Source: Minisyncoccota bacterium
GTDB taxonomy: Bacteria; Patescibacteriota; Minisyncoccia; Phycocordibacterales; UBA9973
Length of the DNA: 64,000 bases
Direction of reading: 5' to 3'
Assembly (NCBI GenBank): GCA_028718635.1
Contig: JAQULK010000001.1
Location: 479,755-543,754, forward strand
Translations under genes and position numbers: made by a program
Shown: positions 19,717-61,138 of the stretch, in pieces
Numbering within the stretch: the first letter of the stretch is position 1
Layout of the letters: every line of letters starts with the position of its first letter
The notes under the pieces: generated by a model
What the model was told of the DNA's origin: nothing
Database searches by the model: none
The model's input: the letters and a program-made list of their open reading frames with translations, nothing else

Positions 19717-19746
19717 AAAAACGACTAGGTCTGACCTAGTCGTTTT
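19717..19746. terminator. Hairpin terminator at the end of the purE-purB transcript
   Basis: aaaaacgactaggt-ctg-acctagtcgttttt. Confidence 0.75.
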
Positions 19747-21473
19747 TAATACACTTCCTGCTGATAACATTTTTCACAATACACTATTTCAGGCCGATCT
19801 GGGGCATAACTGGTTTCAAATTCAACTTCACATTTACCAGTATGGATATGATCTTCCTTATCACACATACATTGTCTATGCCAGAGCTTAAATGGGTTTC
19901 TTTGAGCGATACGTTGATAATGTCTGCAATTTGGACAAAGTTTCGGGATAGGTAAATTCATTCTTTTGTAAAAAGAAAATTCCTCGGCTATAACCTTAAA
20001 GGCTTCAGTGCATTGATCATTGCATTTCCCTTTGTGCTCGCATTCTATAACCTTACCGATTATTTCTTCTTTTGTGTCGGCAAAATTATCCGGAAGATCT
20101 TTGTTGTTGATTTCGATTTTATAGTTTCTTTCTTCGGTGTCTTTCCATTTGTAACCTTGTTTTAAAGCTTCTTCTTTAGTTAAAGGAAAGTATTCTTGAG
20201 CAATGGTTTCGTTGTAGCAGAAAGGACTTAATTCTGTTGGAAAGAACTCTCCGTATTTGTATATTCTACCTTTACTATCTATGTAGGGCATAGTGTTCAT
20301 ATGCTCTATAATTTTAGGGACTAATTCTTCGTATTGTTCTTTGGTGTATTGTTTGTTTAGGATGCAGTAGGATTTGTTGCGGAGACCGACGCAGGCGAAA
20401 CAATTTGAACATACATAACAAAAATCACAATAAGAAAGTTCATCAGATTCACCGCAAGTATTTGAAAATTTTGTATTAGTATTTTTCCAAAATGATATGT
20501 ATTCATAAGTAAGCTCCATAAATTCACAATAATTTGTATCGTAAACATTGCGACCATCAATCATTCGCATACAATATTTTTCATCTTCACATTTTTTAAC
20601 GTCGAAACAATTGTGAACATTTTTTGATTGAACGATGTTGTTTCCAGTCACGTTTTTGCACTGTATTTCTATGGCAAATTTATGCGGAACATTTCCTTTG
20701 ATTTTTAGAAATTCTTTTTGAATGTTTCTTAGTCCTTCTCTTCCATTTTTAAGCAACTCATTTTTCTTTTCAAGATATTGTTCCTTAGAATATGCTTTAT
20801 TGAAAATGTGATATTTTTGACTGCGCAGTCCTGTACAACCAATACAATCTTGGCAATTTTTGCAGTCAAAACAATAAATAAGGTCAAAAGAATTGGAACA
20901 TTCTTGAGCAAATATAGAATTTGATAATTTTTCGCAATCTATGCATTGGTAACAAAATTGACATTCTCGCGCTAGATGAGTATCAACGCAATTTTTTGAT
21001 TCATAGGGAGACCCATACATACAGTCCTCAATAGCGATGGATCCGAAACAAAGATAAGAATTTTTAACATCGCCAACATAATTGCAATAATCACTATTGT
21101 GAACAAAGTTAGCATTTAAATTTATCCTAGGAACTTTCTCTTGTAATTCCTTGAATTGGATAAAAAAATTCTTAGAGAAATCGTATTGTCTTCCATAAAA
21201 TAAAGCATCCCAATTATCAGACCAATAATAGTCGCGTTCATAAACTTTAAAGGGTTTATCTAAAGAATAAACAGAAATAATATTTTTACCGCTTCCGTCG
21301 CAAGTCCTTTTGTAAAGGGTTCTCTCGTTTCGAAAAACAAAACGACGCTGTAAACGGCAATCTGGGCAAAAAGTCGGAGGAGGTACTTTTATTTTTTGGT
21401 AAAATTTAAAATCCTCCGATTCTATCGTAAAATCTTTTTTACAATTTTGACAGATTTTTGTTTCACTTTGCAT
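19746..21473 (-). CDS. Cys-rich hypothetical protein, paralog 1
   Basis: CQNC, CPDCR, many CxxC repeats, C-terminal YCEKCYQQEVY. Confidence 0.85.
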   Translation of the reverse strand: MQSETKICQNCKKDFTIESEDFKFYQKIKVPPPTFCPDCRLQRRFVFRNERTLYKRTCDGSGKNIISVYSLDKPFKVYERDYYWSDNWDALFYGRQYDFSKNFFIQFKELQEKVPRINLNANFVHNSDYCNYVGDVKNSYLCFGSIAIEDCMYGSPYESKNCVDTHLARECQFCYQCIDCEKLSNSIFAQECSNSFDLIYCFDCKNCQDCIGCTGLRSQKYHIFNKAYSKEQYLEKKNELLKNGREGLRNIQKEFLKIKGNVPHKFAIEIQCKNVTGNNIVQSKNVHNCFDVKKCEDEKYCMRMIDGRNVYDTNYCEFMELTYEYISFWKNTNTKFSNTCGESDELSYCDFCYVCSNCFACVGLRNKSYCILNKQYTKEQYEELVPKIIEHMNTMPYIDSKGRIYKYGEFFPTELSPFCYNETIAQEYFPLTKEEALKQGYKWKDTEERNYKIEINNKDLPDNFADTKEEIIGKVIECEHKGKCNDQCTEAFKVIAEEFSFYKRMNLPIPKLCPNCRHYQRIAQRNPFKLWHRQCMCDKEDHIHTGKCEVEFETSYAPDRPEIVYCEKCYQQEVY

Positions 21474-27688: not shown

Positions 27689-29458
27689 TTAATAAACTTC
27701 TTGTTGGTAACACTTTTCGCAGTAAACTATTTCCGGTCTGCCAGGCGCATAGGAAGTTTCGAATTCATTTGGACAAGAATCATTTCCGTGAAAATGCTTC
27801 GCAGAATTTTGGTAAATATTATTTTCTGAAGCCCTACCCTTGCACATACATTTTCGATGCCAGAGTTTCAGCGGATTCCTTAAATTAATGCGTTGATAAT
27901 GTCGACAATTCGGACACAATCTAGGCAAAGGCAAATTCATTCTTTTATAAAATTTAAATTCTTCTGGAACTATTTTGAACGCCTCTGTGCATTGCTCTTT
28001 GCATTTACCGCCATGTTCGCAAGCAATAACTTTTCCCACTATATCATCTTTTACCTCATTAATATCGTCTGGAATATTTTTATTTTCTATGTCAACTTTG
28101 TAATTTCTTTCTTCCGTATCCTGCCAAGAATATCCTTTATCTAGAGCTTCTTCCTTTACTAGTGGAAAATACTCTTGCGCGATTGTTTCATTATAAGCAA
28201 AGGGAGATAATTCTGAAGGAAAAAATTCTCCGTATTTGTAAATAATTCCCTTTTTATCTTTATAAGGCATTTTCTCCATATGCTCTATAATTTTTGGCAG
28301 GAGTTTTTCATATTCTTCCTTTGTGTATTGTTTGTTTAAAATGCAATATTGTTTTTTGCGCAAACCCTCGCATCCGAAAATATTTAAACAATTATGACAT
28401 TCCTCACTGTAATAAGTATTTTGATTGCTTAAATTTCTAATACTAAAGGCTGTATTTGATCCGGCAAAACCGTGGGCAACTTCATATATAAGTTCTGCTT
28501 TAAAACCTTGAAAAGAAGTGTCATAACTATCTTTTGTTCCCCGTCTGCAAAAAAATAAATATTTTGAATCCTCTGCTTGGCCGGAAGTGAAAGACATGTG
28601 GACATTTCTAGCTTCCTTTAAATCATCCCCGTCTGAATTAACTGATTTATAAATCCGAGCATATCTATGGGGAAGTTTTGATTCTAACTCCTTTAGCTTT
28701 TGAATATTTTCCAAATGTTTTTTATAACTCCCAATATTTTCTTTTATAAATTTCTCATAATTTTCTTTTGAATATGGTTCATTGAATACGTGACATTGTT
28801 TATTTATGAGCCCGATACAGCCAAAACAATACATACAGTTTCTGCAGTCTATTAAATAATAACTTTCAATGCATTCTTGCGAGTAACGGCTAAAAAATAC
28901 TTTATTCAAACGCGTTGATTCAAAAATCTCATAACTAAATTCTATTTTTGATGAAAAAGCGACGTCCAAGGAATCCTGTGATTCCACCACTTGATTGCCA
29001 AAATATACTCTTTCATTATCTTTTCCTCCGAATAATAAATAGCATTCTTTGAAATCCAAACCGTAATTGCAATAATCGCTCAAAACAAAATTATCCCTGT
29101 AAAGATTTACTCTCGGAACAGATTTTTGAAGTGAATGAAATTGATCAAAAAAAGGAATCGAAAAATCATAATCACGGCCAAAAGTTATCGGATCCCATTT
29201 ATCAGAAAGCCAGCAATCACGACAATAAATTGTATAAGGTCTATCCTTGTGGTATATAGTCAATAATGATTTTTTACATAAAGCGCATTCACGCTTGTAA
29301 AAAACACGATTGTTTCTAAAAAGCAGTCTTCTTTGAAACCTGCAATCAGGGCAAAAAGTTGGCGCCAGCACTTTCATCTTCTCATAAAAATTGAAATCTT
29401 CTTTTTCTACAACAAACTTATTATTGCAATTTTGGCAAATTTTTGTTTCTGATTTCAT
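27689..29458 (-). CDS. Cys-rich hypothetical protein, paralog 2
   Basis: Same termini and motifs as 19746-21473. Confidence 0.85.
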   Translation of the reverse strand: MKSETKICQNCNNKFVVEKEDFNFYEKMKVLAPTFCPDCRFQRRLLFRNNRVFYKRECALCKKSLLTIYHKDRPYTIYCRDCWLSDKWDPITFGRDYDFSIPFFDQFHSLQKSVPRVNLYRDNFVLSDYCNYGLDFKECYLLFGGKDNERVYFGNQVVESQDSLDVAFSSKIEFSYEIFESTRLNKVFFSRYSQECIESYYLIDCRNCMYCFGCIGLINKQCHVFNEPYSKENYEKFIKENIGSYKKHLENIQKLKELESKLPHRYARIYKSVNSDGDDLKEARNVHMSFTSGQAEDSKYLFFCRRGTKDSYDTSFQGFKAELIYEVAHGFAGSNTAFSIRNLSNQNTYYSEECHNCLNIFGCEGLRKKQYCILNKQYTKEEYEKLLPKIIEHMEKMPYKDKKGIIYKYGEFFPSELSPFAYNETIAQEYFPLVKEEALDKGYSWQDTEERNYKVDIENKNIPDDINEVKDDIVGKVIACEHGGKCKEQCTEAFKIVPEEFKFYKRMNLPLPRLCPNCRHYQRINLRNPLKLWHRKCMCKGRASENNIYQNSAKHFHGNDSCPNEFETSYAPGRPEIVYCEKCYQQEVY

Positions 29459-39784: not shown

Positions 39785-39851
39785 AAATTCTCCTCACCCC
39801 TTTCTTTCCCCTCTCCATTATTGATGTAATGGAGAGGGGCTGGGGAGAGGT
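39785..39851 (-). repeat. Palindromic repeat, family C
   Basis: Reverse complement of 5392-5452. Confidence 0.8.
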
Positions 39852-41617
39852 CAATATACTTCACTTTGATAGCATCGTTCACAATAAACTATCTCTTTCT
39901 TTGCTGAAATATGTCCGGTCTTAAATTCTTCTTTGCATGGTTCGTCTCCATGAAAGTGTTTTATGGTATTTTTGTATATATTAGTTTTATCACTTGAACC
40001 AGCACACATACAAGATCTTTTTTCTAATTTTAATTTCAACCTATCTTCTATTCTTCTTTCAAATCTACATTCATGACACAAGGTCGGAAGCGGAAGATTT
40101 TCTTTTTTATAAAACAAAAACTCATTTTCTAGAATTTTATATGGATTTTTACATTTTTCACATTCTATAACTTCTTTTAGGATTTCATCATCAATTTCAG
40201 TTATTGATTCTGTAAGTTCTGATGCTTTTTTTGTTATTTTATATTCTCCCCTAGGTACATCTATCCATAAATACCCTTTATTTTTTGCCTCAGCCTCAGT
40301 AAGTGGAAAATGTTGTATAGCGACAGTATTATTGTAGCCAAGTGGAGAAAGTTCTATAGGAAAAAATTCTCCGTATTTATATACAAGACCTTGTGAATCC
40401 ACATAGGGCATATCTTCCATGTGTTTTTTTATTTGAGGAATAAGTTTTTCATATTCTTCTTTAGAATATTGCTTATTTAAAATACAATATTGTTTCTTTT
40501 TTAACCCAACACAACCAAAACAATCAGACGAACTAAAAAGATGATGACAGTATTCATTATTTCTTGATGAAGGCCAACAACTACGTGAAAATTTATTATT
40601 ATAGGAATTTTCACCACATTCTAAAGTTTCATAATTTAATTCAGTATGCTCTCCCCAGTTGCAAGAATCATAGTTATCCTTATTTCCTGGTACTTGCATA
40701 TACTGACAATAACGCATATTTTCACTTTCTCTTATTAAATAGCTATCATTTACATTTTTACAATTCGTCACATGAGAACCACTTGAATTTAAATTTTTAA
40801 GACCGTGTTGATATTTTGTCGGCTGAGTTAGCCAAAATAAACGTGCTTTTTTTCTTGCCTCTAAAATTCCAGAAGTAGAATTCAAATTCATTTTCTTTAT
40901 TTCTTTTTCATATTCTTCTTTTGTATATTTTTTATTAAAAATACAATAAGATAATTTACGCAAATTTGCACAACCAAAACAATCATTACATCCTAAGCAA
41001 TTACGACAAAAATAAAGATTATATGATTCTGCGCACATTATAGAAAAATAGCACTGATAACAATTTTCCAACCAAAAACATTCATAACAACGTTCGCAAT
41101 TTTTAATATGAGAATTATCAACACAATTCTTGCAGGAATCTACGCCATTTCCATACATACAATCCTCAGAATAATTTGAATTCACAATCAAATAACTGTT
41201 TTTTATATAAGACGCATTAAAAACATACGGACTATTATTAATAAAAGTATTATTAAAATTATATACAGGTACAACCTTACTTAATTCTTCTATTTGTTGA
41301 AAAAATGGCTTAGTAAAGTCAATATCTAAAGCATGCTCCATTGGATCCCAATTATCTCCAAACCATTCTTCTCGAGTCATTATTTTTCTTCCACTTTCTG
41401 CAGGGTAAGTAGAGAACATATTTTCACCCGTTAAAAAATTTTTTACTTTGAATAATTTTCTTTCATTTCTCCAAGCTAACCGTCTTTGTGCGCGACACAT
41501 AGGACAAAAAGTTGGAGGTGGAACCTTCATTTTTTCATAGAAATTAAAATCCTCCGGTTCTATTGGGAAATTTTCCTTGCAGTTTTGACATATTCTATTT
41601 TCTGTAATATACGCCAT
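39851..41617 (-). CDS. Cys-rich hypothetical protein, paralog 3
   Basis: CQNC, CPMCRAQRR, YGEFFP, YCERCYQSEVY. Confidence 0.85.
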   Translation of the reverse strand: MAYITENRICQNCKENFPIEPEDFNFYEKMKVPPPTFCPMCRAQRRLAWRNERKLFKVKNFLTGENMFSTYPAESGRKIMTREEWFGDNWDPMEHALDIDFTKPFFQQIEELSKVVPVYNFNNTFINNSPYVFNASYIKNSYLIVNSNYSEDCMYGNGVDSCKNCVDNSHIKNCERCYECFWLENCYQCYFSIMCAESYNLYFCRNCLGCNDCFGCANLRKLSYCIFNKKYTKEEYEKEIKKMNLNSTSGILEARKKARLFWLTQPTKYQHGLKNLNSSGSHVTNCKNVNDSYLIRESENMRYCQYMQVPGNKDNYDSCNWGEHTELNYETLECGENSYNNKFSRSCWPSSRNNEYCHHLFSSSDCFGCVGLKKKQYCILNKQYSKEEYEKLIPQIKKHMEDMPYVDSQGLVYKYGEFFPIELSPLGYNNTVAIQHFPLTEAEAKNKGYLWIDVPRGEYKITKKASELTESITEIDDEILKEVIECEKCKNPYKILENEFLFYKKENLPLPTLCHECRFERRIEDRLKLKLEKRSCMCAGSSDKTNIYKNTIKHFHGDEPCKEEFKTGHISAKKEIVYCERCYQSEVY

Positions 41618-50696: not shown

Positions 50697-51323
50697 TTAT
50701 GATTTATTTGCTAGTAGAACTTTGCCAAGCCTTATTCCCCCGTAGACTATCAACAGCAACCCCACTATAAGATTTAATGCCTGAATCAAAATCATAGGAA
50801 TAGTTCCTTTTATAAAGGAAAAAACAATCACAAAGGTCCCGATAAATACAAAAGTCGCCAGACCTGTTGAAAATCCAAAAACAAGCAATTCTTTTTTTGA
50901 ATAATTATATTCCATAGCTTTGGCTGTAAACAAACTCGTCCAAAGAAATATAGTTAAAGGACTTGAGAGAGTGAGAAAAAAGGTATAAATAAAACTCGAC
51001 AAAAGACTTATTGAATTTATGTTCGGGTTGATTGAGACACTTTCCGTAAAAATATTTTTGATTATAAAAATACCAAATATTATCAAAACAAAAGAACTAA
51101 TAATTCCGAAAATTCTTTTTACTTTTTCTTTTTCTAATAATTTCCCGATCCCGAATATTGCGAGTGTAATGTAAATATAATCAGCGAAAGTGGCTCCCAA
51201 GGTGGCGACTAATCCATCGAGAGCGGTTTTCTGCAGAGTCAAATTGATAATGAAAATGAAAACAGGACCTATCGCCAACTGGAGGACTAGCCCTGTAAAT
51301 AAGCCATTTTTGAAAATTTTCAT
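50697..51323 (-). CDS. LysE-family translocator
   Basis: IGPV..I..TL..G...G...AD, multi-TM. Confidence 0.82.
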   Translation of the reverse strand: MKIFKNGLFTGLVLQLAIGPVFIFIINLTLQKTALDGLVATLGATFADYIYITLAIFGIGKLLEKEKVKRIFGIISSFVLIIFGIFIIKNIFTESVSINPNINSISLLSSFIYTFFLTLSSPLTIFLWTSLFTAKAMEYNYSKKELLVFGFSTGLATFVFIGTFVIVFSFIKGTIPMILIQALNLIVGLLLIVYGGIRLGKVLLANKS

Positions 51324-51356
51324 ATTTTAATATTAACACAAAACACTTTTCACTTT

Positions 51357-51593
51357 TTAGGTATTTTTGTTTTGAGGTTTAAGTAAAGACGTGCTTATAA
51401 CAACAACAATTGTAGTGATAATAATTGCGTAGAGAAATTTGACCAAAAGACCAGAGTTGTCTAAAGGGAAAAAGAAAGCAATAAGAGCTTTAATCGCGTC
51501 ACTCCAAGCAAGCCCAGCCACCAAGGAAAGCGCAGCTACGATATACCCCGAAGTCTGATTCCTGATTTGTGTTTTAAGTTCATCCTTTAGCAT
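51357..51593 (-). CDS. Small membrane protein (DUF5654-like)
   Basis: AALSLVAGLAWSDAI..YA.I.T. Confidence 0.7.
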   Translation of the reverse strand: MLKDELKTQIRNQTSGYIVAALSLVAGLAWSDAIKALIAFFFPLDNSGLLVKFLYAIIITTIVVVISTSLLKPQNKNT

Positions 51594-51657
51594 GGAATAA
51601 TTATAGCAAACTTATCAACTAAAAACGATCTTTCGTTACAATTAAATGCAGGTGAAA

Positions 51658-52854
51658 TTAATTATTTTTTATTTTTCTTGGTTCTAATAGCAATACCAAC
51701 TCTTCTGATTTGACTCTCGACTTTTTTGTAAGCTTATTTTTATTTAACTTATTATTACCACCCAAAGTACTAAATTTTCCTGTAATTGCATGTGTATGAA
51801 TGCGACTGTTTTTTTTATCTAAATTAAAATATTTTTTAGCAGATTCAAGTACTTGGTCCCCTGATAAACCATTACTGCATTTACCTTTAGGAAAAGTAAA
51901 AATAACCTTCACTTCTCTTTTTGATAAACCTGAAAGAAGTTCATCTAATGCTTTGAGTGATTGTCCTGCATTACTAAATTTGGACTGTGGACGTTCAGAA
52001 ATATCTGGATATCTTCCAACACCAGTTACCGGCCCACATTTTCCCCGGGCAATAGTTTCAAGTACATGATAGAAACGACTATACTGTACTCCGGAGTATG
52101 GTGGGTCGAGAAGAACTAAGTCACCCTTTTTTAATTTAGATATAAGTTTTTTTGCATCAGATATCACTGCTTTTCCCTTAACTAAAGAATGAAGAGGGGT
52201 GATTTCCTCCAAAGCTTTTTCACAAGATTTAAACACATCTATGTGCCAAGCAATTTTAATAAATTTTCCAGCACCAGTTGTCGGTTGAAAAGGTTGAGCA
52301 GTATGTCCAGGAGCAGCAGCAGCTCTTGAAGCAGCAATAATTATTGCAGCCAAGCAAACATTTCTGTATTTAGTTTTTTTTGGTAACGTCTTTAGAAGAT
52401 AATCAAGAATTAATGCTTGTTTGGGGCTGAAATAGTGACCGCCATAAGCATTCCAAATTGGACCTATTTTTGGAAGGGTTTCGCAAAGTTTTCTAGCTTT
52501 ATTTACTCTAATTTTAATACTTTTCTTGTAATTTTTATCAATCTCTTCTGCCTGATTTAAAAGTTTTGAATCTTTTATTTCTTTTTTAGTCTTTTCTATC
52601 CAAATCTCTTTTAAATATTCAGGATTAAGAATATTAGTCCGCTCTATAACTGCTTTTGAAAGAACAACTGCATATTTTTGTAGATCACCTGCAATAATTT
52701 CTCCTTTAAAATTTTGATTTGTGGCAACAAAGTTAACTACGCCTCCAGAACCACAAAATGGGTCTATGAATCTTTTTGCACTGGGAAGTTGCTCTCGAAG
52801 TAATTCTCCAAGACCATTCGCCAACATATATCTTTTTGATCCCATGTATTTCAT
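51658..52854 (-). CDS. D12/Dam-class N6-adenine DNA methyltransferase
   Basis: MKYMGSK, DPFCGSG (motif I), LDPPY (motif IV); ATG overlaps the upstream TGA (ATGA). Confidence 0.88.
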   Translation of the reverse strand: MKYMGSKRYMLANGLGELLREQLPSAKRFIDPFCGSGGVVNFVATNQNFKGEIIAGDLQKYAVVLSKAVIERTNILNPEYLKEIWIEKTKKEIKDSKLLNQAEEIDKNYKKSIKIRVNKARKLCETLPKIGPIWNAYGGHYFSPKQALILDYLLKTLPKKTKYRNVCLAAIIIAASRAAAAPGHTAQPFQPTTGAGKFIKIAWHIDVFKSCEKALEEITPLHSLVKGKAVISDAKKLISKLKKGDLVLLDPPYSGVQYSRFYHVLETIARGKCGPVTGVGRYPDISERPQSKFSNAGQSLKALDELLSGLSKREVKVIFTFPKGKCSNGLSGDQVLESAKKYFNLDKKNSRIHTHAITGKFSTLGGNNKLNKNKLTKKSRVKSEELVLLLEPRKIKNN

Positions 52855-54227
52855 ATGCCAAGTCCCCAAAGGGATATTCTTTCACACTCACTTAAACTAA
52901 ACATTTGTTGAGAAATACCCCTTATTAAATCATTATAAGAATAAGTTGTTCCCTGTGCATTCTCCCACGTTTTTATATCTTGAAGTGCTGCATCAATATC
53001 GGTCCAAAGGTCAAGAAAGTCAGCAATAGTTGTACCGTCTTTGATTAGTCCATAATCAGTTGCATATGGTTGCCACCAAAATTCTAGATCTGCTTTTGTA
53101 AAACCAGCCTCTCGAATCAGGCTTCCATTTATGCCGGTCGAAATTCTCAATAGAAGAGTGGCTCTCGCTAAAACCTGTAAATGGTGATTTGGGTGATCAG
53201 TAGAAGTAACCTTAGAAGCTTCTTCGATAATTCTCGATTCATTGGGTTGCGTCTGCCATGTAAGAAAATCTACCCAACCATTTTGTATCGGTAGGGCAAA
53301 GCCGAGAGCCGGAATATGTTTCATAACCCAAGCTCGATAATTCGCCAAGTGAGTAGGTAAACGAGGGTCTACACCATGAACAGCTCGGTATGACTGCGCC
53401 AAGCCTATTCTTAAAAGGTGTTTGTCAATCTCATCAAATCTGGATGAGGGATTTGGTTCGCACATACGCCATAATTCATTCAAAAAAGAAAGCGAGTCTG
53501 GTGCAGGAGCATTGGTTTTAGGAAGAATTCTAGATGGTCTATAACTAGAATGGTTTCGTAGTATTTGGTCATCACCAAATTGTTTTATATCTATTCCCCA
53601 AGATTTTAACCAAGAACGACCAATAGGATGGAGATTTACATTGAAGGCACCTAACCAAACAGAAAGAGCTATTGACCCAGGCGTAATAATTTCGGAAAGT
53701 GTTTCTGCAGATGGTTTTCTATCAGCCCAATGCTCAAGAGCTTCCCATGTAAATTTATGTGTTCCCTTTTGACTAGATGTCGTGACCGACCTTCTTGTTG
53801 TATTTGTTACAATTACATGTGTTCTATTAAATACCCCAACCCCGATGGATCCAAGAATGGACATTGCAGCACGCAACTCAGCATAGTAAGCAAGATGAAC
53901 AGAGCTACTTGAATCTCCTTTTATATGAAGATTGAGTGCTCTACCCAGTAGACTCCAACCATCACTACAGTGATTAAAAATTGAGGCAGCTATATAATTT
54001 TCAATCTGCCTCTGATATAAGGATCTTCCTCGAGCAATTACCTCTGTAGGATTTCCTCTATTTGCTGGATTTCTTTGGTAAGATTTGGAATATCTATTTT
54101 GTGGATTAATCCATCGCCTAACAGAGATGTGAGAACGAAGATTTTTTACCCCCTCCTTAATCGCATCAGGAGAAGCATTTCTTAACTGTTTTTTTAGTGA
54201 GTTTGCTGGCATGAATTTTTTTATCAA
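52851..54227 (-). CDS. Hypothetical protein with HEPN-like motifs
   Basis: HLAYYAELRAAMSIL...GTHK...LRNHSSY pattern; the HEPN assignment is inference. Confidence 0.6.
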   Translation of the reverse strand: MIKKFMPANSLKKQLRNASPDAIKEGVKNLRSHISVRRWINPQNRYSKSYQRNPANRGNPTEVIARGRSLYQRQIENYIAASIFNHCSDGWSLLGRALNLHIKGDSSSSVHLAYYAELRAAMSILGSIGVGVFNRTHVIVTNTTRRSVTTSSQKGTHKFTWEALEHWADRKPSAETLSEIITPGSIALSVWLGAFNVNLHPIGRSWLKSWGIDIKQFGDDQILRNHSSYRPSRILPKTNAPAPDSLSFLNELWRMCEPNPSSRFDEIDKHLLRIGLAQSYRAVHGVDPRLPTHLANYRAWVMKHIPALGFALPIQNGWVDFLTWQTQPNESRIIEEASKVTSTDHPNHHLQVLARATLLLRISTGINGSLIREAGFTKADLEFWWQPYATDYGLIKDGTTIADFLDLWTDIDAALQDIKTWENAQGTTYSYNDLIRGISQQMFSLSECERISLWGLGI

Positions 54228-55750
54228 ACAACATCTCCATCAAATCCGAGGTTTTTATAAATTGCTTTAGCATCTTTTCCTAATTTATTATCTTTAGATA
54301 AATGTTTAAGTAGCAAGCGTCTAAATTCTCTGTAACCACTACCACCTCTAAATGAAAGTTTGAGCGTTCTCTCTATTTCAGAGAGATTTTCAGCAGCCGA
54401 TGATCTCCAATCAAATGTTGAAAGTGCAATTGTAAGCTGGTCTATAAACACAGTAATCTGTTGTTGTTTCTTTAATAAATTATCAAGAGCTTCTGATACA
54501 GTCACTTCTGGATTCAGTTTCCATTTCTTCAAATTTAATTTATCCGTATTTCTGAATAGTATATCGTTGGTAATATTTAAAACGACAGAAATGCCTTGAT
54601 CATTATTCAGGAGTGTATGTGGTCCATAAAAAGCAGGATCTTTCTTGATCTTCCGCTTATAGTCAGTTTCTCTTAGTTTTTTTGCCCAATCAACTTTAAG
54701 TTCTTTAATAGATTTTTCTAGTGAGTTCCAAAGGTAAATTAAGAGAGCCGCTTGCTGGCTGCGATTCCAAGGAATCGTCATTTCATCATGCCCTGCTGGT
54801 GCTCCAAATAAACCCCCAATTGTTACTCCCTTACCTTCTGATGTTTTAATATATGTTTTTAATAAAGCTCTTATCCAAGCGGCTTGGGTAACAGAACTAT
54901 CTCCACTTTCACCAAGCATATTTATACGCTGATACCAAGAACTTGTTGGCTCAGACCAAAGTAATTCAACTATTTCTTGTGCTCTCGCTTCTCGGTATAC
55001 TTTGTGGCCCTCGAATCGATCTAACCAATCCTCAGTACGCAAAAGAGGATAAAGATCAAAAGCAAGACTTGGATTGATCCTCTTTGGCTTAATGTTTATT
55101 GTCCAGAATAAATAAGCCTGCCAGCTTAGATCTAAACCATAAAAAGCAACTACCGGTAACTCGTAATCCTCGTTAATATTTTCATCAAAGGCCAATAATC
55201 TATGTTGGCCATCAATTACTTCCAATGGATGAACTTGTTCTGGTTTCCATTTTTTTGTTTCTTTAGAAAAAGGAAGTTTTATTTCAGTGATGACAGCATT
55301 CTGGTCTATTGTTATTAAATCCTTAAATGCTACGAACCCCCCATTTCGTTTATCTTCTTTTGTTAAAATATTCACAACAATTGCTGTAGGTAGCCACCCT
55401 GGTTTACGAAGATCATCAAACCTACCATCTTGTCGTTGAGATTTTGTTAAATCTGACCATGGGTAACCATACTTAACATACTCCGCAATATTTTTTGAAC
55501 GAGATTGTTCGTAGGCACGTTGGATCCCCATGTCGCCAGACCTTTTTTTGCCATCTTTTGCATCTCTGCGATTTACACCAGACAAAAAACGCAGCTGGCG
55601 AGCAGACAATGAAAATATATAGAAACACTTTTCTGGTTCTCTTCGATGATTCTTTTTAATAAACTCAACTGATCCCCATTCTTTTAACCATTGATTTACC
55701 TTTAAGGCATTAATGGTTACATTTTTATTTGACTTAGATTTATTTTTCAT
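54224..55750 (-). CDS. DGQHR-domain (DndB/ParB-like) protein
   Basis: GIQR, LPTAIVVN, VIDGQHRL, F.TIN..PK. Confidence 0.9.
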   Translation of the reverse strand: MKNKSKSNKNVTINALKVNQWLKEWGSVEFIKKNHRREPEKCFYIFSLSARQLRFLSGVNRRDAKDGKKRSGDMGIQRAYEQSRSKNIAEYVKYGYPWSDLTKSQRQDGRFDDLRKPGWLPTAIVVNILTKEDKRNGGFVAFKDLITIDQNAVITEIKLPFSKETKKWKPEQVHPLEVIDGQHRLLAFDENINEDYELPVVAFYGLDLSWQAYLFWTINIKPKRINPSLAFDLYPLLRTEDWLDRFEGHKVYREARAQEIVELLWSEPTSSWYQRINMLGESGDSSVTQAAWIRALLKTYIKTSEGKGVTIGGLFGAPAGHDEMTIPWNRSQQAALLIYLWNSLEKSIKELKVDWAKKLRETDYKRKIKKDPAFYGPHTLLNNDQGISVVLNITNDILFRNTDKLNLKKWKLNPEVTVSEALDNLLKKQQQITVFIDQLTIALSTFDWRSSAAENLSEIERTLKLSFRGGSGYREFRRLLLKHLSKDNKLGKDAKAIYKNLGFDGDVV

Positions 55751-56156
55751 ATTTAAAATAATGCTTAAATTAGTACTTACTATTGTACCAAATTAGGATC
55801 CACAAAGCACGCAATTTAAGGTATGAAATAGTTAGTAATCCACCTTTATATATTTATCTTTTGACGCCGTTAACGCTAAAATAGTTTTTGCCCACGGGCT
55901 CACAAAATCAGAATCCAAGGATTCGATAAGTGAGTTCGTTTTGCGTTTAAGAGCAAAATATTTTAGATGATTATTAATTAATTTTGTTTAAAAAAACATA
56001 TGAATAAAATAAAAAGTTTGGTTTGGCACACAGAGAAGCGTATCGTATCTCAGTAGGTATGCTATGACGAATAGTTCTTGAGTAAGTTTCAACGCATCTC
56101 GTGCGGGATAACTGCGCTCAAACTGGCTGGGTGTCTGGTGCGAAGTTGGAACATTT

Positions 56157-56864
56157 TTAACGTTTGAATAAAGTTTTAATATTCTTTTCAAGATAGTATA
56201 TCCAAGAAAATAAAGTACAATCCAAGAAAATACCTGTAATTGTTAGGCATGTAATCCCAAAAAATACATATGGTAAATAACCATATTCTGTGGCACTGTT
56301 ATAAGCCCATTTTCCACTAACAACTATAAAGATTATGAGTGCAAGTACATTTAGAAGAGCGTCAGAGTGAATATTCTTACTTGTACTTTCTACTGCTTCC
56401 TCTTCCCATTCATGACTATAAGTACCATTACTCTCACTTTTTGTAATACTAGTTTTAAAGTAATCCTTATTTATAGGAAGAAAGTCGTAATGCCATTTAC
56501 GTCTGCTTTTATAGCCATGATTATCGTATTTCCATATCACCCTATCCATGAGTATGCTTAAAGGAGCAATTAATATAATTAATCCACATATCATATAAAG
56601 CCACCTGTATTCTGGAAGAAACGGTAAATAACTATTTAAACCATCAAGGCCATGGAGCAAAACTACGAGCAGAGAAAGAGTAAGAAATGTGCGATTCACT
56701 TTTGATGCATGTTCTTGAGGTTTAAAGTATATGTAACGACCAAGGGCTTTGTATACGACATACATTAAAACATAAACTATTGCCACATGAAATATCGTTA
56801 ATTCGTGAAGTAAAAGATTTTTTAGTTCATCAAAAGAAGATAGAAATAAAGATTCATTTAACAT
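56157..56864 (-). CDS. Multi-TM hypothetical cargo protein
   Basis: 235 aa, about 5 hydrophobic segments. Confidence 0.7.
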   Translation of the reverse strand: MLNESLFLSSFDELKNLLLHELTIFHVAIVYVLMYVVYKALGRYIYFKPQEHASKVNRTFLTLSLLVVLLHGLDGLNSYLPFLPEYRWLYMICGLIILIAPLSILMDRVIWKYDNHGYKSRRKWHYDFLPINKDYFKTSITKSESNGTYSHEWEEEAVESTSKNIHSDALLNVLALIIFIVVSGKWAYNSATEYGYLPYVFFGITCLTITGIFLDCTLFSWIYYLEKNIKTLFKR

Positions 56865-56882
56865 AATATTTTTAAGTTAAGA

Positions 56883-57599
56883 TTATTTTTTCTTACTACC
56901 AAATACTATATATAAAAAGATTTTATAGTAGAAAATAATAATCCCTGCAAAGAGCAAAAAGGAAAATACCAAAACGACAGGAATCATTTCTAGAAAGTAC
57001 ATTATAGTTTTACCAACAGATTTTTCATAAAAGAACCAGTTATCTTGGTACGATTTATCGGGTTGCAAAAAAGTAACCTTTGTATTATTAAAAGATGTGT
57101 AAGCATCAACAATTAAACATTTTATATCATTTTGTTTTATGTAATTTGAAAATGCTTCCGATGAGATTTTATTTCTGTAATTATTCTCCATTATAAATAA
57201 TTCATACAATATATCCGTATTTTTATTATCCTTAATTTTTTCATAATTATTGGCAAGTTCAGTAGAACAATAAACGTTATTTAAAGTACCCATATAATAA
57301 TCGTCTGGAGGACTATTTAATACATAAGTTCTATTACTGTCTCCTATCTTTTCCCCCATCTTAATAAGTGCACTTATTGGTTTAATCTCAGAAGTTATTC
57401 TTTCAGATATAGTTGCAACTTTTTTCCATTCTTGAACTCCAATATCACCCTTAAACAGATTAGAATTACTATAAACTATTAAATTATAAATAAAAAATAG
57501 AATAAAGGAAAAAATAAAAATAATTGATAGAAGTCTATGCCACCATTTATTTTTAAGATTCAAATCTTCTCTAGATAACCAATTTAATATTTTTTTCAT
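56883..57599 (-). CDS. Two-TM hypothetical cargo protein
   Basis: KWWHRL + TM, large loop, C-terminal TM (YYKIFLYIVFG). Confidence 0.7.
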   Translation of the reverse strand: MKKILNWLSREDLNLKNKWWHRLLSIIFIFSFILFFIYNLIVYSNSNLFKGDIGVQEWKKVATISERITSEIKPISALIKMGEKIGDSNRTYVLNSPPDDYYMGTLNNVYCSTELANNYEKIKDNKNTDILYELFIMENNYRNKISSEAFSNYIKQNDIKCLIVDAYTSFNNTKVTFLQPDKSYQDNWFFYEKSVGKTIMYFLEMIPVVLVFSFLLFAGIIIFYYKIFLYIVFGSKKK

Positions 57600-57602
57600 A
57601 AA

Positions 57603-57977
57603 TTATTTTTTTAATACTCTTTTAAAAATCTCAGGGTCTCTTTTTGCTGAACTTAAAATAACATCAAAATTAAAACGACCATACCCAAATGTTTCCTCTT
57701 CATAATCTTCATCCTCTTTGTCTTTTTCTTGGTCAAAATAATTAACAAAGTCTAATATGGCATTTATTAAAGTACCCATTATCATAATCGGTTTTTCAAG
57801 TTTCTTTGCATTATCAGAACCAGAAGTTTCATCACTTTTAATAAAAACAGCCATCATGTCTGCTTTCTGATAAATCTGTTTCCATAAGTACTCAACAATA
57901 GTTTTCCAATGGAAGGTATTACGATTAACCCACCAAATAATAACCCCTACGACAACTATTATTAGTAAATATCCCAT
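57603..57977 (-). CDS. Single-TM hypothetical cargo protein
   Basis: 124 aa, N-terminal TM, acidic patch. Confidence 0.65.
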   Translation of the reverse strand: MGYLLIIVVVGVIIWWVNRNTFHWKTIVEYLWKQIYQKADMMAVFIKSDETSGSDNAKKLEKPIMIMGTLINAILDFVNYFDQEKDKEDEDYEEETFGYGRFNFDVILSSAKRDPEIFKRVLKK

Positions 57978-58315
57978 ATGATTTTAATCATACAACTCTC
58001 GCTAAAAAAATCAATGGTTGTTTGACATTCCTTTTTTAAAGGCATATACTAATAGCGAGTACGGAACTGCACCTTGATTTATAAAGCACGCAAAAAATAA
58101 AAAAATAACAACACTCTCGCCTAAAAAAATTAAACCCTTTGTGGCTAGCATAAAATATATAAAAAATTAAAACACAGCTAGAAATATAAAATAAAAAAAA
58201 ATAAAGAGAGCCTAAATAATAAAAAAAATTAATTAGTGCCAAACAAAACAGGAACCAAAATTTGGGTTCTTTTTTCGTTTATTTCAAGCTGTTTTTCTGT
58301 ACCCGAAAAAAGGGT

Positions 58316-58501
58316 ATGGAATTAAAATATAGCCAAATTCTAATAACTCGTACTATAAACCACTTTAAGAAAAAGTATGGTTTAGACATTTCTGCCGAAA
58401 CAGCAGATGTCTATTTGGCTTCGTTCGCGGTGGTGTTCCGTTCGTTCGTCCGCCCGTCCTCTGTGGACGGCGGACGAACGGATACACCCGATGATTATTA
58501 A
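58316..58501 (+). CDS. Small hypothetical protein upstream of rep
   Basis: MELKYSQ..FKKKYGLDISAETA..YL. Confidence 0.55.
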   Translation: MELKYSQILITRTINHFKKKYGLDISAETADVYLASFAVVFRSFVRPSSVDGGRTDTPDDY

Positions 58502-58507
58502 CACTCG

Positions 58508-58538
58508 TTCTGCGGGTGGTAGTAACACCCGCAGAACA
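58508..58538. promoter_or_regulatory. Putative rolling-circle double-strand origin hairpin
   Basis: gttctgcgggtg-GTAGTAA-cacccgcagaac, 12-bp stem just upstream of rep. Confidence 0.6.
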
Positions 58539-58552
58539 TTGCAGATTGCAAT

Positions 58553-59608
58553 ATGATAGACACGATTAAATTTTTAATACCAATTGATAACAGTGAGGTT
58601 TTTGAGAGTATTAAAAATCAGCTTACTCGTACTCGTAGAGAAAATATGAAAACGAATGAATTAAAATTTGAATATTTTACAGAAGAAATTGAAGTAGGAA
58701 GTTATGAACGAACTGTAAGAATTTATCTGAAACAAGATAGCCCGAAAGGTGTATTCGTAGAATTTTCTTTGCCTAAACAATATTATGATAATAATGTAGA
58801 AATGATACACGCTTATGATATTGAATATGTTTTAGATAATTTTAAAAATGATGTTTGCCAATTTTTCCAAGAACGTATTCCTCCAATAGAACAATGGATT
58901 ATTTATCGTCTTGATGTTTGCTATAACTGGACTTTTGAATCAGAACAAAAATGCCAGTCCATTATGAATTTTATTCAGCGTATAGATTTCCCTAAAAAGA
59001 AAAAATATGTCTATGATACTTCTGTAATGTATAAAGGGTCTGCCTATACAATTAAATTCTATTTAAAGGGTGCAGAATTTAAGAGGCATGACTATAAAGA
59101 CATTTTTAAAAAAGATATGGATAAAGCTGATTTACTTCTTAATTGGGCAGAAAAAGTTTTACGATTTGAGGTTGAATTTAAGAAAGGATATTTAAGTAAT
59201 TTATTTCCTCATGGAAAAGTTTTAGTTTCTAGTATTGTTTACGATAAAATTATTGAGGACATATTAAAAAAATATCTTACTTTGGTTTTTCGCTACGTTA
59301 ATAAAGAAAATATGAAATATGAAAATGTTAGGCAGTTAATAGATAAAAGTTTCAAGCCAGCTAAAGCATTACGCTTGTATCAATTTTATAAGGGCTACTT
59401 TTACGAGCAAGATGAAAAGTTTCATATTAAAAAAGGACTTAACCCGTCTACGATTTGGCGATATAAAAACGATTTAAAAAATATTGGTGTTTCATTTGAG
59501 GAAAATTTAGGTGATTCCAGTTTCGTAGCGGTTGAGGAATTGATTGTACCCTCTGGAAAAGGAAAGTTTGATTTGCTTGATTATAAGCTAACTAGTGATT
59601 ATAGTTAA
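58553..59608 (+). CDS. Phage/plasmid replication initiator (gene II/X, Rep_trans-like)
   Basis: MIDTIK, EFSLPK...N, RLDVCYN, FYLK, LRFEVE motifs. Confidence 0.82.
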   Translation: MIDTIKFLIPIDNSEVFESIKNQLTRTRRENMKTNELKFEYFTEEIEVGSYERTVRIYLKQDSPKGVFVEFSLPKQYYDNNVEMIHAYDIEYVLDNFKNDVCQFFQERIPPIEQWIIYRLDVCYNWTFESEQKCQSIMNFIQRIDFPKKKKYVYDTSVMYKGSAYTIKFYLKGAEFKRHDYKDIFKKDMDKADLLLNWAEKVLRFEVEFKKGYLSNLFPHGKVLVSSIVYDKIIEDILKKYLTLVFRYVNKENMKYENVRQLIDKSFKPAKALRLYQFYKGYFYEQDEKFHIKKGLNPSTIWRYKNDLKNIGVSFEENLGDSSFVAVEELIVPSGKGKFDLLDYKLTSDYS

Positions 59609-59612
59609 ATTT

Positions 59613-61079
59613 ATGAAATACGTTATCTATTGCAGAAAATCAACCGATACCGAGGACAGACAAGTCCAATCCCTAGAATCCCAAGAAAACGAGCTTAAAA
59701 GGCTCGCAGAGGCTCAAGGACTGCATGTTGTTGCTATCTTACATGAAAGTATGTCCGCCAAGTCAGAGGGTCGCCCTGTATTCAATAAAGTGTTAGAAAT
59801 GTTTATTAAAGGAAAAGTTGACGGTATTATTTGTTGGAAACTAGACCGCCTAGCTAGAAACTTTATTGACGGTGGACGAATTATTGATTTACTGCAAAAA
59901 TCTGTTATCAAAGAAATTCGCACTCCTGAAAGTATTTATTTACCCAATGATAATGTGTTAATGATTTCTATGCAGTTTGGAATGGCTAACCAATACAGCC
60001 GTGATTTGAGTATGAATGTTAAGCGTGGTCTTCGTACTAAACTTGAAAAGGGCGAATGGTTAAATAAGGCACCACTCGGATACTTGAATGATAAAATTGC
60101 ACACAAAATTATTATTGACCCAGTACGCAGTAAATATATTATCCGTGCTTTTGAACTTTTTACGACTGGAAAATACGGACACAAAGATATTTCTAATATT
60201 CTTTTTTCCGAGGGATTTAGAAGTAGTGGTAATTTACAAGTGCCAAAGTCGGCAATCCAAACGATTCTTTTAAATCCTTTTTATTGTGGTTTAATGAAAA
60301 CAGGCGGAAAAATTTATAACGGAAACCATACACCCATTATTTCTAAAGCTATTTATGATAAAGCCCAAGAGGTAATGCAAGAACGCCTACACCCAAGAAA
60401 GAAAACTTTACTATTTCCTGTTAGAGGTTTGATTAAATGTAGCGAGTGCGGTTGTATGTATACCGCTAGTAGAAAAAAAGGTCATGATTATTACTACTGC
60501 ACTAATGGCAAAGGCATTTGTACTTCTGATAAAAAATATTTGAGAGAAAATGATTTGTATAAAAAATTACTTCCTATTCTTGAAAAAGTTGCGTGGGATA
60601 AAGAAGAAATTGAGTTGTTATACCTTGCATCAAAAGAGGACATTAAATACGAAACTGGATACTTAAATAAAACTCTAGAAAATCTTAAACAAGAGGCAGT
60701 CGTTATTTTAGAACGCCAAGGCAAACTTCTTAATTTATATTTAGATGGCTCTATGTCTAAAGAATTATACGAGGAAAAAAATATCGCTATTGAAAATCAA
60801 AGAGTGTTATTAGCCAAGCAAATTTCTGAAATTGAGGACAAAACCCAAAAGGCAGTTTCTGCTTTGGAACCGACTAAAAAATTGTTTTTAGATTGTGTTG
60901 TATGGGCGAAAGAGTTTTTAACACTTCCACCAGAGAAAAAACAAAATATTGTCCACGAGATACTTTGGAACCTTAACATGAAAGAGAAAAATATCGTTGA
61001 TTACCAACTTAAAAGTCCGTATTCTGCTATCGCAAATTTACCTCAAAATGCTAATTTCCACGCAAGGCTGGGAGACTAG
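59613..61079 (+). CDS. Large serine recombinase (integrase)
   Basis: YCRKST catalytic Ser, DRLARN, PLGY, Zn ribbon CSECG/YYYC, coiled coil. Confidence 0.95.
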   Translation: MKYVIYCRKSTDTEDRQVQSLESQENELKRLAEAQGLHVVAILHESMSAKSEGRPVFNKVLEMFIKGKVDGIICWKLDRLARNFIDGGRIIDLLQKSVIKEIRTPESIYLPNDNVLMISMQFGMANQYSRDLSMNVKRGLRTKLEKGEWLNKAPLGYLNDKIAHKIIIDPVRSKYIIRAFELFTTGKYGHKDISNILFSEGFRSSGNLQVPKSAIQTILLNPFYCGLMKTGGKIYNGNHTPIISKAIYDKAQEVMQERLHPRKKTLLFPVRGLIKCSECGCMYTASRKKGHDYYYCTNGKGICTSDKKYLRENDLYKKLLPILEKVAWDKEEIELLYLASKEDIKYETGYLNKTLENLKQEAVVILERQGKLLNLYLDGSMSKELYEEKNIAIENQRVLLAKQISEIEDKTQKAVSALEPTKKLFLDCVVWAKEFLTLPPEKKQNIVHEILWNLNMKEKNIVDYQLKSPYSAIANLPQNANFHARLGD

Positions 61080-61138
61080 GAATCGGACCTAGATTAAAGG
61101 CTTCAAAGGCCTCTGTCCTACCGTTAGACGATCTCCCA
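61068..61138 (-). tRNA. tRNA-Gln(TTG)
   Basis: Minus strand TGGGAGA...gaggc-ctTTGaa-gcctt...TCTCCCA G; T-loop TCCGATT is slightly atypical. Confidence 0.92.

Follow-up and report, generated by a model that had tools for sequence, protein, structure and literature searches.

The stretch of DNA analysed here (hereafter the window; 64,000 nucleotides, positions 479,755 to 543,754 of contig JAQULK010000001.1, assembly GCA_028718635.1) comes from a Minisyncoccota bacterium whose genome (G000; 761 kb, 98.7% complete; the window lies on its contig C1) carries a small integrative element at the 3' end of a tRNA-Gln gene. The element comprises a rolling-circle Rep, a 61-residue small protein, a large serine integrase and three cargo genes, and its insertion strands the last codons of the integrase gene at the opposite end of the element. 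The integrated form of the integrase (59613..61079, + strand; ATG at 59613, stop at 61077-79) has 488 residues with the Resolvase, Recombinase and Zn-ribbon domains, i.e. the combination of a catalytic serine domain, a recombinase domain and a zinc ribbon with a coiled coil that typifies large serine integrases. Residue S10 is invariant in 39/39 integrases, and Foldseek searches confirmed the integrase fold, giving no residue-level placement of the tail described below. Named relatives of the integrase derive mostly from Nomurabacteria, Taylorbacteria, Paceibacterota and Saccharibacteria bins or from unclassified bins; IMG/VR yielded no match with a single integrase query, and seven loci when an integrase alignment served as the query.

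Boundaries of the element and its empty site

The integrase reads antisense into the 3' end of the genome's only tRNA-Gln(TTG) gene (61066..61138, - strand), and Rfam models detect tRNA alone above threshold. The core GGCTGGG occurs at 56125..56131, where the host flank ending at 56124 meets the P' arm of the element, and again at 61066..61072, within the last integrase codons and the tRNA 3' end; the two copies match over exactly 7 bp, with no extension, and in identical codon phase. Joining the cores predicts a circle of 4,941 bp, on which the integrase would continue to a stop at 56169-71 and have 499 residues, with 12 new residues (VWCEVGTFLTFE, 56133-56168) replacing the final Asp. The segment 56132..56171 (+ strand) is thus a stranded integrase 3' end of 12 codons plus stop, and doubles as the predicted right arm of attP. 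As the 7-mer is present five times on the forward strand of the window, the core match alone proves little, and the case is carried by three other tests, namely the genome-wide ranking of the tail, the empty site in G155 and the gene content.

To locate an empty site, a search of 151 genomes of the genus supplied 29 tRNA-Gln(TTG) loci for comparison with the left flank in the window. The best match was found in G155, a member of the same genus (local score 70, next 36). There the dnaX-side synteny is followed by a tRNA-Gln ending in CCA, which runs directly into a left flank that is 82% identical to window 56112-56048 over 66 nt (E 2e-10); the alignment begins at window 56131, and this colinearity fixes the left end of the element where the preliminary description of the locus had placed it. 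The site thereby shows the organization of a large serine integrase target, with a short core, a predicted attP x attB recombination giving attL + attR, and an empty counterpart. In G076 the tRNA-Gln is instead joined to a homologue of window 51367-51608. A larger element of 9.4 kb, prompted by this joint, was rejected, as there is no tail-like site in 51000-56120 (best 1.6) and G155 matches the flank at 56124. The joint rather implies that the site is a hotspot, at which the methyltransferase/DGQHR cassette further left was acquired separately. This cassette (51658-55750, - strand) lies outside the element, encodes a DGQHR/DndB-like protein, a 458-residue protein of no known family and a D12-class adenine methyltransferase, and is absent at this place in G076.

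The tRNA at the reconstructed empty site ends in an encoded CCA, both here and in G155, in agreement with the earlier proposal that excision restores a CCA end. This is not a family trait, since only 3/23 reconstructed empty sites of relatives end in CCA; about 8/41 host tRNAs encode it (a by-eye reading), and the host genome has a PolyA_pol-family gene, a family that covers both the CCA-adding enzyme and poly(A) polymerase. CCA restoration was accordingly rejected as the purpose of the arrangement and is incidental. In the T-loop of the window tRNA-Gln (61081-61088) a C replaces the second T, and the G155 copy differs. The flanks of tRNA-Gln(TTG) at two other loci, L146 (G008) and L162 (G125), resemble the last codons of this integrase family, and L146 is apparently a remnant as judged by eye.

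Conservation of the stranded tail

A survey of the best 120 of 3,804 integrase homologues (self included) showed that the C-terminus is a read-through of antisense tRNA in 63, comes to a stop within five residues in 36, includes the tail within the gene in 11 and is of another kind in 10. The in-gene tails stand at the predicted register and conform to [W/L]xx[VI][RG][TN], corresponding to the W..V.TF-like tail anticipated in the preliminary description; one of them belongs to the closest homologue (P0002, 82% identical). When a protein profile of these 11 natural tails was run against the entire genome, window position 56133 ranked first (18.7, next 14.8; 761 kb), and a DNA matrix likewise placed the window tail first genome-wide (22.5, next 17.5).

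Among 45 close relatives (integrases at least 44% identical) the terminus coincides with an antisense tRNA 3' end in 37, spread over eight tRNA types (Gln 18, Ser 6, Tyr 3, Leu 3, Lys 3, Pro 2, Val 1, Arg 1). Of the tRNA-bound loci with at least 4 kb of upstream sequence, a set of 23 that contains two duplicate pairs, 20 display an in-phase tail upstream, 3.2-11.2 kb from the integrase and behind a core that matches the tRNA of that same locus; the loci without one are L040, L043 and L057. The upstream tail recurs in 13/16 loci outside the seed set of the matrix, and the opposite-strand control gave two matches, both from one duplicated locus. A further set of eight family genomes was reached through the small open reading frame (ORF) alone (8/250). 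Three of these have a tRNA-Gln downstream and show tail matches upstream in 3/3, that of L185 being weaker and without the G before the core, and a fourth, short contig holds two tails; the remaining four have a different layout and no tail at threshold.

The sequence itself, the tRNA call, the two genome-wide rankings and the G155 empty site establish the ends of the element, and they uphold the cores, phase, circle and integrase stops claimed previously. Likewise, the homologue tails, the in-phase upstream tails across the family and the empty site establish that the gene is split by an attP within it and exists in two states with different C-termini.

Several loci (L025, L035, L036, L045, L059, L181, L182 and L186) carry a stack of two to four upstream tails, a sign that insertion may have occurred more than once at a single tRNA end. 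The integrase at L060:71-1612 passes through eight tRNA-derived codons and continues directly, in frame, into a tail; no tRNA is called beyond it, and the arrangement is possibly the scar of an imprecise excision. Outside the window, the same genome (G000) contains two inverted related tails at C1:639409 (+) and 644485 (-), near another large serine recombinase and genes for tRNA-Cys, tRNA-Leu and tRNA-Lys, and a near-identical copy of this tail terminates locus L023.

Constraint on the tail as DNA and as protein

To characterize constraint we assembled 30 tails, i.e. 23 from the searches (the one in the window included, after removal of four without core and two duplicates) and seven picked by hand. 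As judged from codon and residue patterns in this set, the tail is under selection both as DNA and as protein. At the DNA level, the Val codon of the tail is GTT in 27/30 and its Gly codon GGA in 28/30, whereas these codons are used at frequencies of 0.32 and 0.28 in the integrase genes. The likely binding motif for the zinc-ribbon domain (ZD) in attP is GTTGGAAC (56145..56152, + strand), which stands at +18 to +25 from the junction, while the antisense T-loop of the tRNA, the likely ZD motif of attB, stands at +13 to +20. The motif of the tail is thus 5 bp further out, and 5 nt is also the best offset between the tail and the tRNA arm (0.54). In the model for LI integrase, the position of the zinc-ribbon motif differs by 5 bp between attP and attB (PMC3783163; this and the other published systems below are cited from excerpts of the respective papers).

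At the protein level, codon 10 of the tail, which is outside the columns used for finding it, is hydrophobic in 28/30 tails (shuffle mean 12.0, the observed count being reached by 0/5,000 shuffles). A stop within five codons past the motif occurs in just 3/30 tails against a shuffle mean of 10.7 (P 0.0012). The first 12 codons are stop-free in 23/23 tails as opposed to 15/23 and 9/23 in the other frames, a difference that is partly built in by the protein-found seeds. Tails extend for 12-30 codons from the junction, and where two natural proteins with a tail were modelled it forms the second half of the last helix (predicted local distance difference test, pLDDT, about 74 and about 90).

A predicted directionality factor

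The small ORF (58316..58501, + strand) encodes a conserved 61-residue protein with 134 database matches and no Pfam, PHROG or NCBIfam family; the ESM Atlas offered leads below 0.9 only, for this protein and for one cargo gene. Its conservation and complex prediction point to a recombination directionality factor. The ORF lies within 1.7 kb upstream of 34/35 related integrases (22 of these are in the profile), and it is present whether the Rep is of the Phage_CRI type, of the HUH-type REP_ORF2-G2P family, or missing. At L022, L034, L036 and L046 it directly precedes the integrase with no Rep between, and other loci have an unrelated HUH Rep.

In the predicted complex of the small protein with integrase residues 160-488 the score is 0.73, in contrast to 0.02 for the best of three controls; this mark is reached by 116/157 solved and 2/215 mismatched pairs, counts that are only a rough guide for the alignments used. 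The runs share at least 79% of contacts, with a partner pLDDT of at least 85. The predicted interface comprises integrase residues 329-346, 417-425 and 469-476, i.e. the junction of the zinc-ribbon domain (DBD2) and the coiled coil, and conservation of its columns barely exceeds that of their region (0.63 vs 0.57). SprB binds the SPbeta integrase at the zinc-ribbon/coiled-coil junction (PMC11722253), and verified factors have been predicted at the DBD2/coiled-coil junction (PMC12286644). The small protein is hence predicted to bind the integrase at the hinge where directionality factors bind, which makes it likely that direction is set by this factor, with the tail swap at most a second layer.

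Functional model and alternative explanations

The catalytic, DNA-binding and coiled-coil parts of the integrase all lie upstream of the cut, so that the integrated form retains every core domain. In an alignment with SprA, the SPbeta integrase, SprA residue 511 corresponds to residue 455 of the query, where the alignment stops; by extrapolation the SprA end at 545 would fall near the cut. Given these features, the predicted factor and the partly DNA-level conservation of the tail, the earlier suggestion that the tail swap acts as the directionality switch is not established by these data. On balance we favor a mechanism in which the small protein probably drives excision, and the 12-residue tail, which only the circle would encode, likely tunes the enzyme instead of setting direction alone. 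With the tail completing its last helix, the circle form would be the full enzyme for integration. The integrase would likely read the tRNA T-loop as its target motif, the zinc-ribbon motifs being GTTGGAAC in attP and the T-loop in attB, offset by 5 bp, and such recognition would explain the use of eight tRNA types. Crossover might occur within tRNA positions 74-71. After insertion, excision by the 488-residue form, which has all core domains, would depend on production of the small protein as a directionality factor at the DBD2/coiled-coil junction, and loss of the tail would likely damp the integrated enzyme, as for Mx8. The Rep, for its part, might nick the TAGTAA hairpin to copy the circle.

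Certain observations weigh against this mechanism or the evidence for it. Four of 11 tested virtual-pulldown matches proved false (PMC12286644), and, as solved integrase-factor complexes exist, the pass of the small protein may owe something to likeness. An offset of 4 nt scores nearly as well as 5 nt (0.50 vs 0.54), a test for two-fold symmetry in attP gave a best value of 0.33 and no peak, and the host-side attB arm is unconserved, the ZD motif being found on the tail/tRNA arm only. The G+3-nt core was imposed as a filter that dropped 4/29 tail matches without core, related tails are not independent samples, and 7 of the 30 tails were hand-picked. Finally, the joints 61072-56132 and 56131-61073 are absent among the listed joints of six contig-only runs, which says nothing either way, and no terminal repeats were seen in the 117 contigs/loci checked (L021-L135, L167, L168).

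It is rather unlikely that the tail is itself the switch, with the circle-form tail helix covering the hinge site of the small protein and permitting integration only, until insertion removes it and enables excision. This idea draws on the predicted contact at 469-476, ten residues before the cut, on the protein-level selection, on speculation that C-terminal extensions can block the factor site (PMC12286644), and on the W-x-x-V-G-x-x-L spacing of the tail, which would match that of the small protein contacts L34, F37, A38 and F41 although the pattern is a generic amphipathic one. A title in the reference list of PMC12286644 moreover presents the extreme C-terminus of SprA as a toggle element. 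On the other hand, the tail is short and continues an existing helix in the models, and direction can already be explained by another conserved factor. Similarly doubtful is the notion of a self-removing lock, wherein the co-encoded 61-residue factor could drive excision only after integration cuts the tail from the gene, with one 40-bp stretch serving both as the lock and as the attP motif, in imitation of the universal tRNA T-loop. Conversely, the overlap could reflect compaction only, the tail being attP DNA that is incidentally translated and the two enzyme forms behaving alike. Fixed third codon positions in the motif, the arbitrary integrated C-termini in the homologue survey and the location of all core domains before the cut would fit this, yet the hydrophobicity of codon 10 and the deficit of stops fall outside the DNA motif, and the first 12 codons are kept open in the tail frame (with the reservation on seeds given above), making it distinctly improbable.

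In a scenario like that of SSV1, with its suicide-type integrase, the integrated enzyme would be dead, and excision would need full-length integrase supplied either by an incoming circle or by a tandem copy after gain of the tail of its neighbor. Stacked tails (L025, L036, L045, L059, L181) and the presence of integrases with a tail within chromosomal contigs (L035) could be read in this way, and the possibility has been raised for DsiB (PMC3146451). We consider it very unlikely here, as 12 residues only are lost, the catalytic, DNA-binding and coiled-coil parts are whole, and the predicted factor interface is contained entirely within the integrated form. Descent from a filamentous phage, as a decayed prophage or a satellite of one, is suggested by the small size, the membrane genes and a Rep family named for filamentous-phage gene II proteins. 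Against it stand the lack of a Zot/pI match anywhere in the 98.7% complete genome, unlike in inoviruses, the lack of a PHROG virion match among the element genes, the replacement of cargo in the nearest relative (L058), the swapping or loss of the Rep type across relatives, and an IMG/VR search with Rep that gave just two 40-residue matches. The prophage version is largely refuted and the scenario as a whole hardly credible; the satellite label used previously finds no support beyond the absence of transfer genes.

Relationship to known integration systems

A predicted attP inside the integrase coding sequence places the system with the self-modifying integrases of the Mx8/DsiB type. The tailed phage Mx8 has a tyrosine integrase that acquires a long C-terminal stretch from the host, whereas the enzyme of the present element is a serine integrase with a loss of 12 residues and a gain of one. 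In this Myxococcus phage attP also lies within the int coding sequence, and integration creates a new 3' end that alters activity without killing the enzyme (PMC6070905). Another close parallel is DsiB of the Dehalococcoides ssrA islands, likewise a large serine recombinase that reads antisense into a structural RNA gene. Its 3' end always overlaps attL, and the enzyme was proposed to be whole in two situations only, on the circle or next to a neighboring island (PMC3146451). The present element differs in its targets, which are tRNA 3' ends of eight types instead of ssrA, in having no dsiA/recF/parB/mom module, in its rolling-circle Rep and predicted directionality factor, and in that a conserved tail was located and tested (compared with PMC3146451). 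The ssrA islands combine an ssrA target with a six-gene integration module, in place of which we find a tRNA-Gln target and small ORF-rep-integrase only.

The LI/A118, SPbeta and phiC31 systems have attP outside the gene and non-tRNA targets, and in contrast to them the motif here is evident on one arm of each site only. With LI/A118, SPbeta SprA with SprB, and phiC31 the integrase shares the domain order and the zinc ribbon with coiled coil and, as predicted here, an approximately 5-bp motif offset between attP and attB and a small factor at the DBD2/coiled-coil junction (PMC3783163, PMC11722253, PMC12286644). The Ralstonia filamentous phages phiRSM1/3 are also rolling-circle replicons integrated at a tRNA 3' end by a serine recombinase; theirs is a small resolvase-like enzyme with attP between ORF14 and ORF15 and a full virion gene set (PMC3816273). 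The excerpts of PMC12884075, PMC6813254 and PMC13107129 contain nothing on this integrase family. A literature search, which did not extend to supplements, found no description of the family, so that published island tables may already include these elements.

Patescibacteria are a group with few genetic tools. The element offers a small complete integrase kit from them, with an enzyme, both sites, an empty site, a predicted directionality factor and a replicon. An idea from 2011, that a serine integrase overlapping its att site is complete on the circle alone, becomes directly testable through the 12-residue difference. If the T-loop is what the enzyme reads, a single family could be redirected from one tRNA gene to another, and if the tail gates the factor, this would add a further level of direction control, of a kind absent from the literature searched.

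Replication module, cargo and other features

The Rep (58553..59608, + strand; 351 residues) is of the Phage_CRI / II-X type (PF05144, E 3e-11; phrog_702; TIGR01629 below cut-off). It has 173 homologues at E 1e-10, none in 400 other class genomes at E 1e-20, and elsewhere one weak plasmid record and one weak phage record. Ahead of it lies a hairpin with the conserved loop GTG-NTAGTAA-CAC (58507..58537, + strand; z -7.4 for 58400-58560), a candidate double-strand origin with the nick site, and such a hairpin precedes 7/7 Phage_CRI reps although the stems differ. The predicted initiator and hairpin origin together have the makings of a rolling-circle replicon, supporting the preliminary description of an integrative rolling-circle mini-element. 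A long G+C-rich hairpin (58432..58488, + strand) overlaps the variable end of the small ORF. The best sigma-70-like promoter match ahead of small ORF-rep-integrase (58022..58050, + strand; 11/12) is a consensus match only, the number of such sites in the region being that expected by chance. Between it and the small ORF is an A-rich leader (58051-58315) with a terminator-like hairpin (58250-58271); in many relatives this position is occupied by a gene for 225-325 residues without Pfam match, which is missing from this element.

The cargo genes are all on the - strand and scans assigned them to no confident family. They encode proteins of 235 residues with four hydrophobic segments (56157..56864, the 3' end overlapping the tail), 238 residues with two (56883..57599) and 124 residues with one at the N-terminus (57603..57977). 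Overall, the gene content is as originally described. None of the six genes is a conjugation gene or an FtsK-type transfer gene of the kind present in integrative and conjugative elements (ICEs) and their actinomycete counterparts (AICEs); some initiators of rolling-circle replication also act as relaxases. L058, the closest relative with both ends available (Rep 72%, tRNA-Ser, 5,299 bp), shares the module but not the cargo.

Elsewhere in this genome (G000) there is a tRNA with a TCG anticodon and a Gln-like acceptor (U1-A72, G73) at C4:16389-16463, and a tRNA-Ser with an ACT anticodon at C1:266261-266348, of which L105 also has one. Within the window, three similar cysteine-rich proteins of 575-589 residues (19746-21473, 27689-29458 and 39851-41617) are dispersed in a purine gene cluster.

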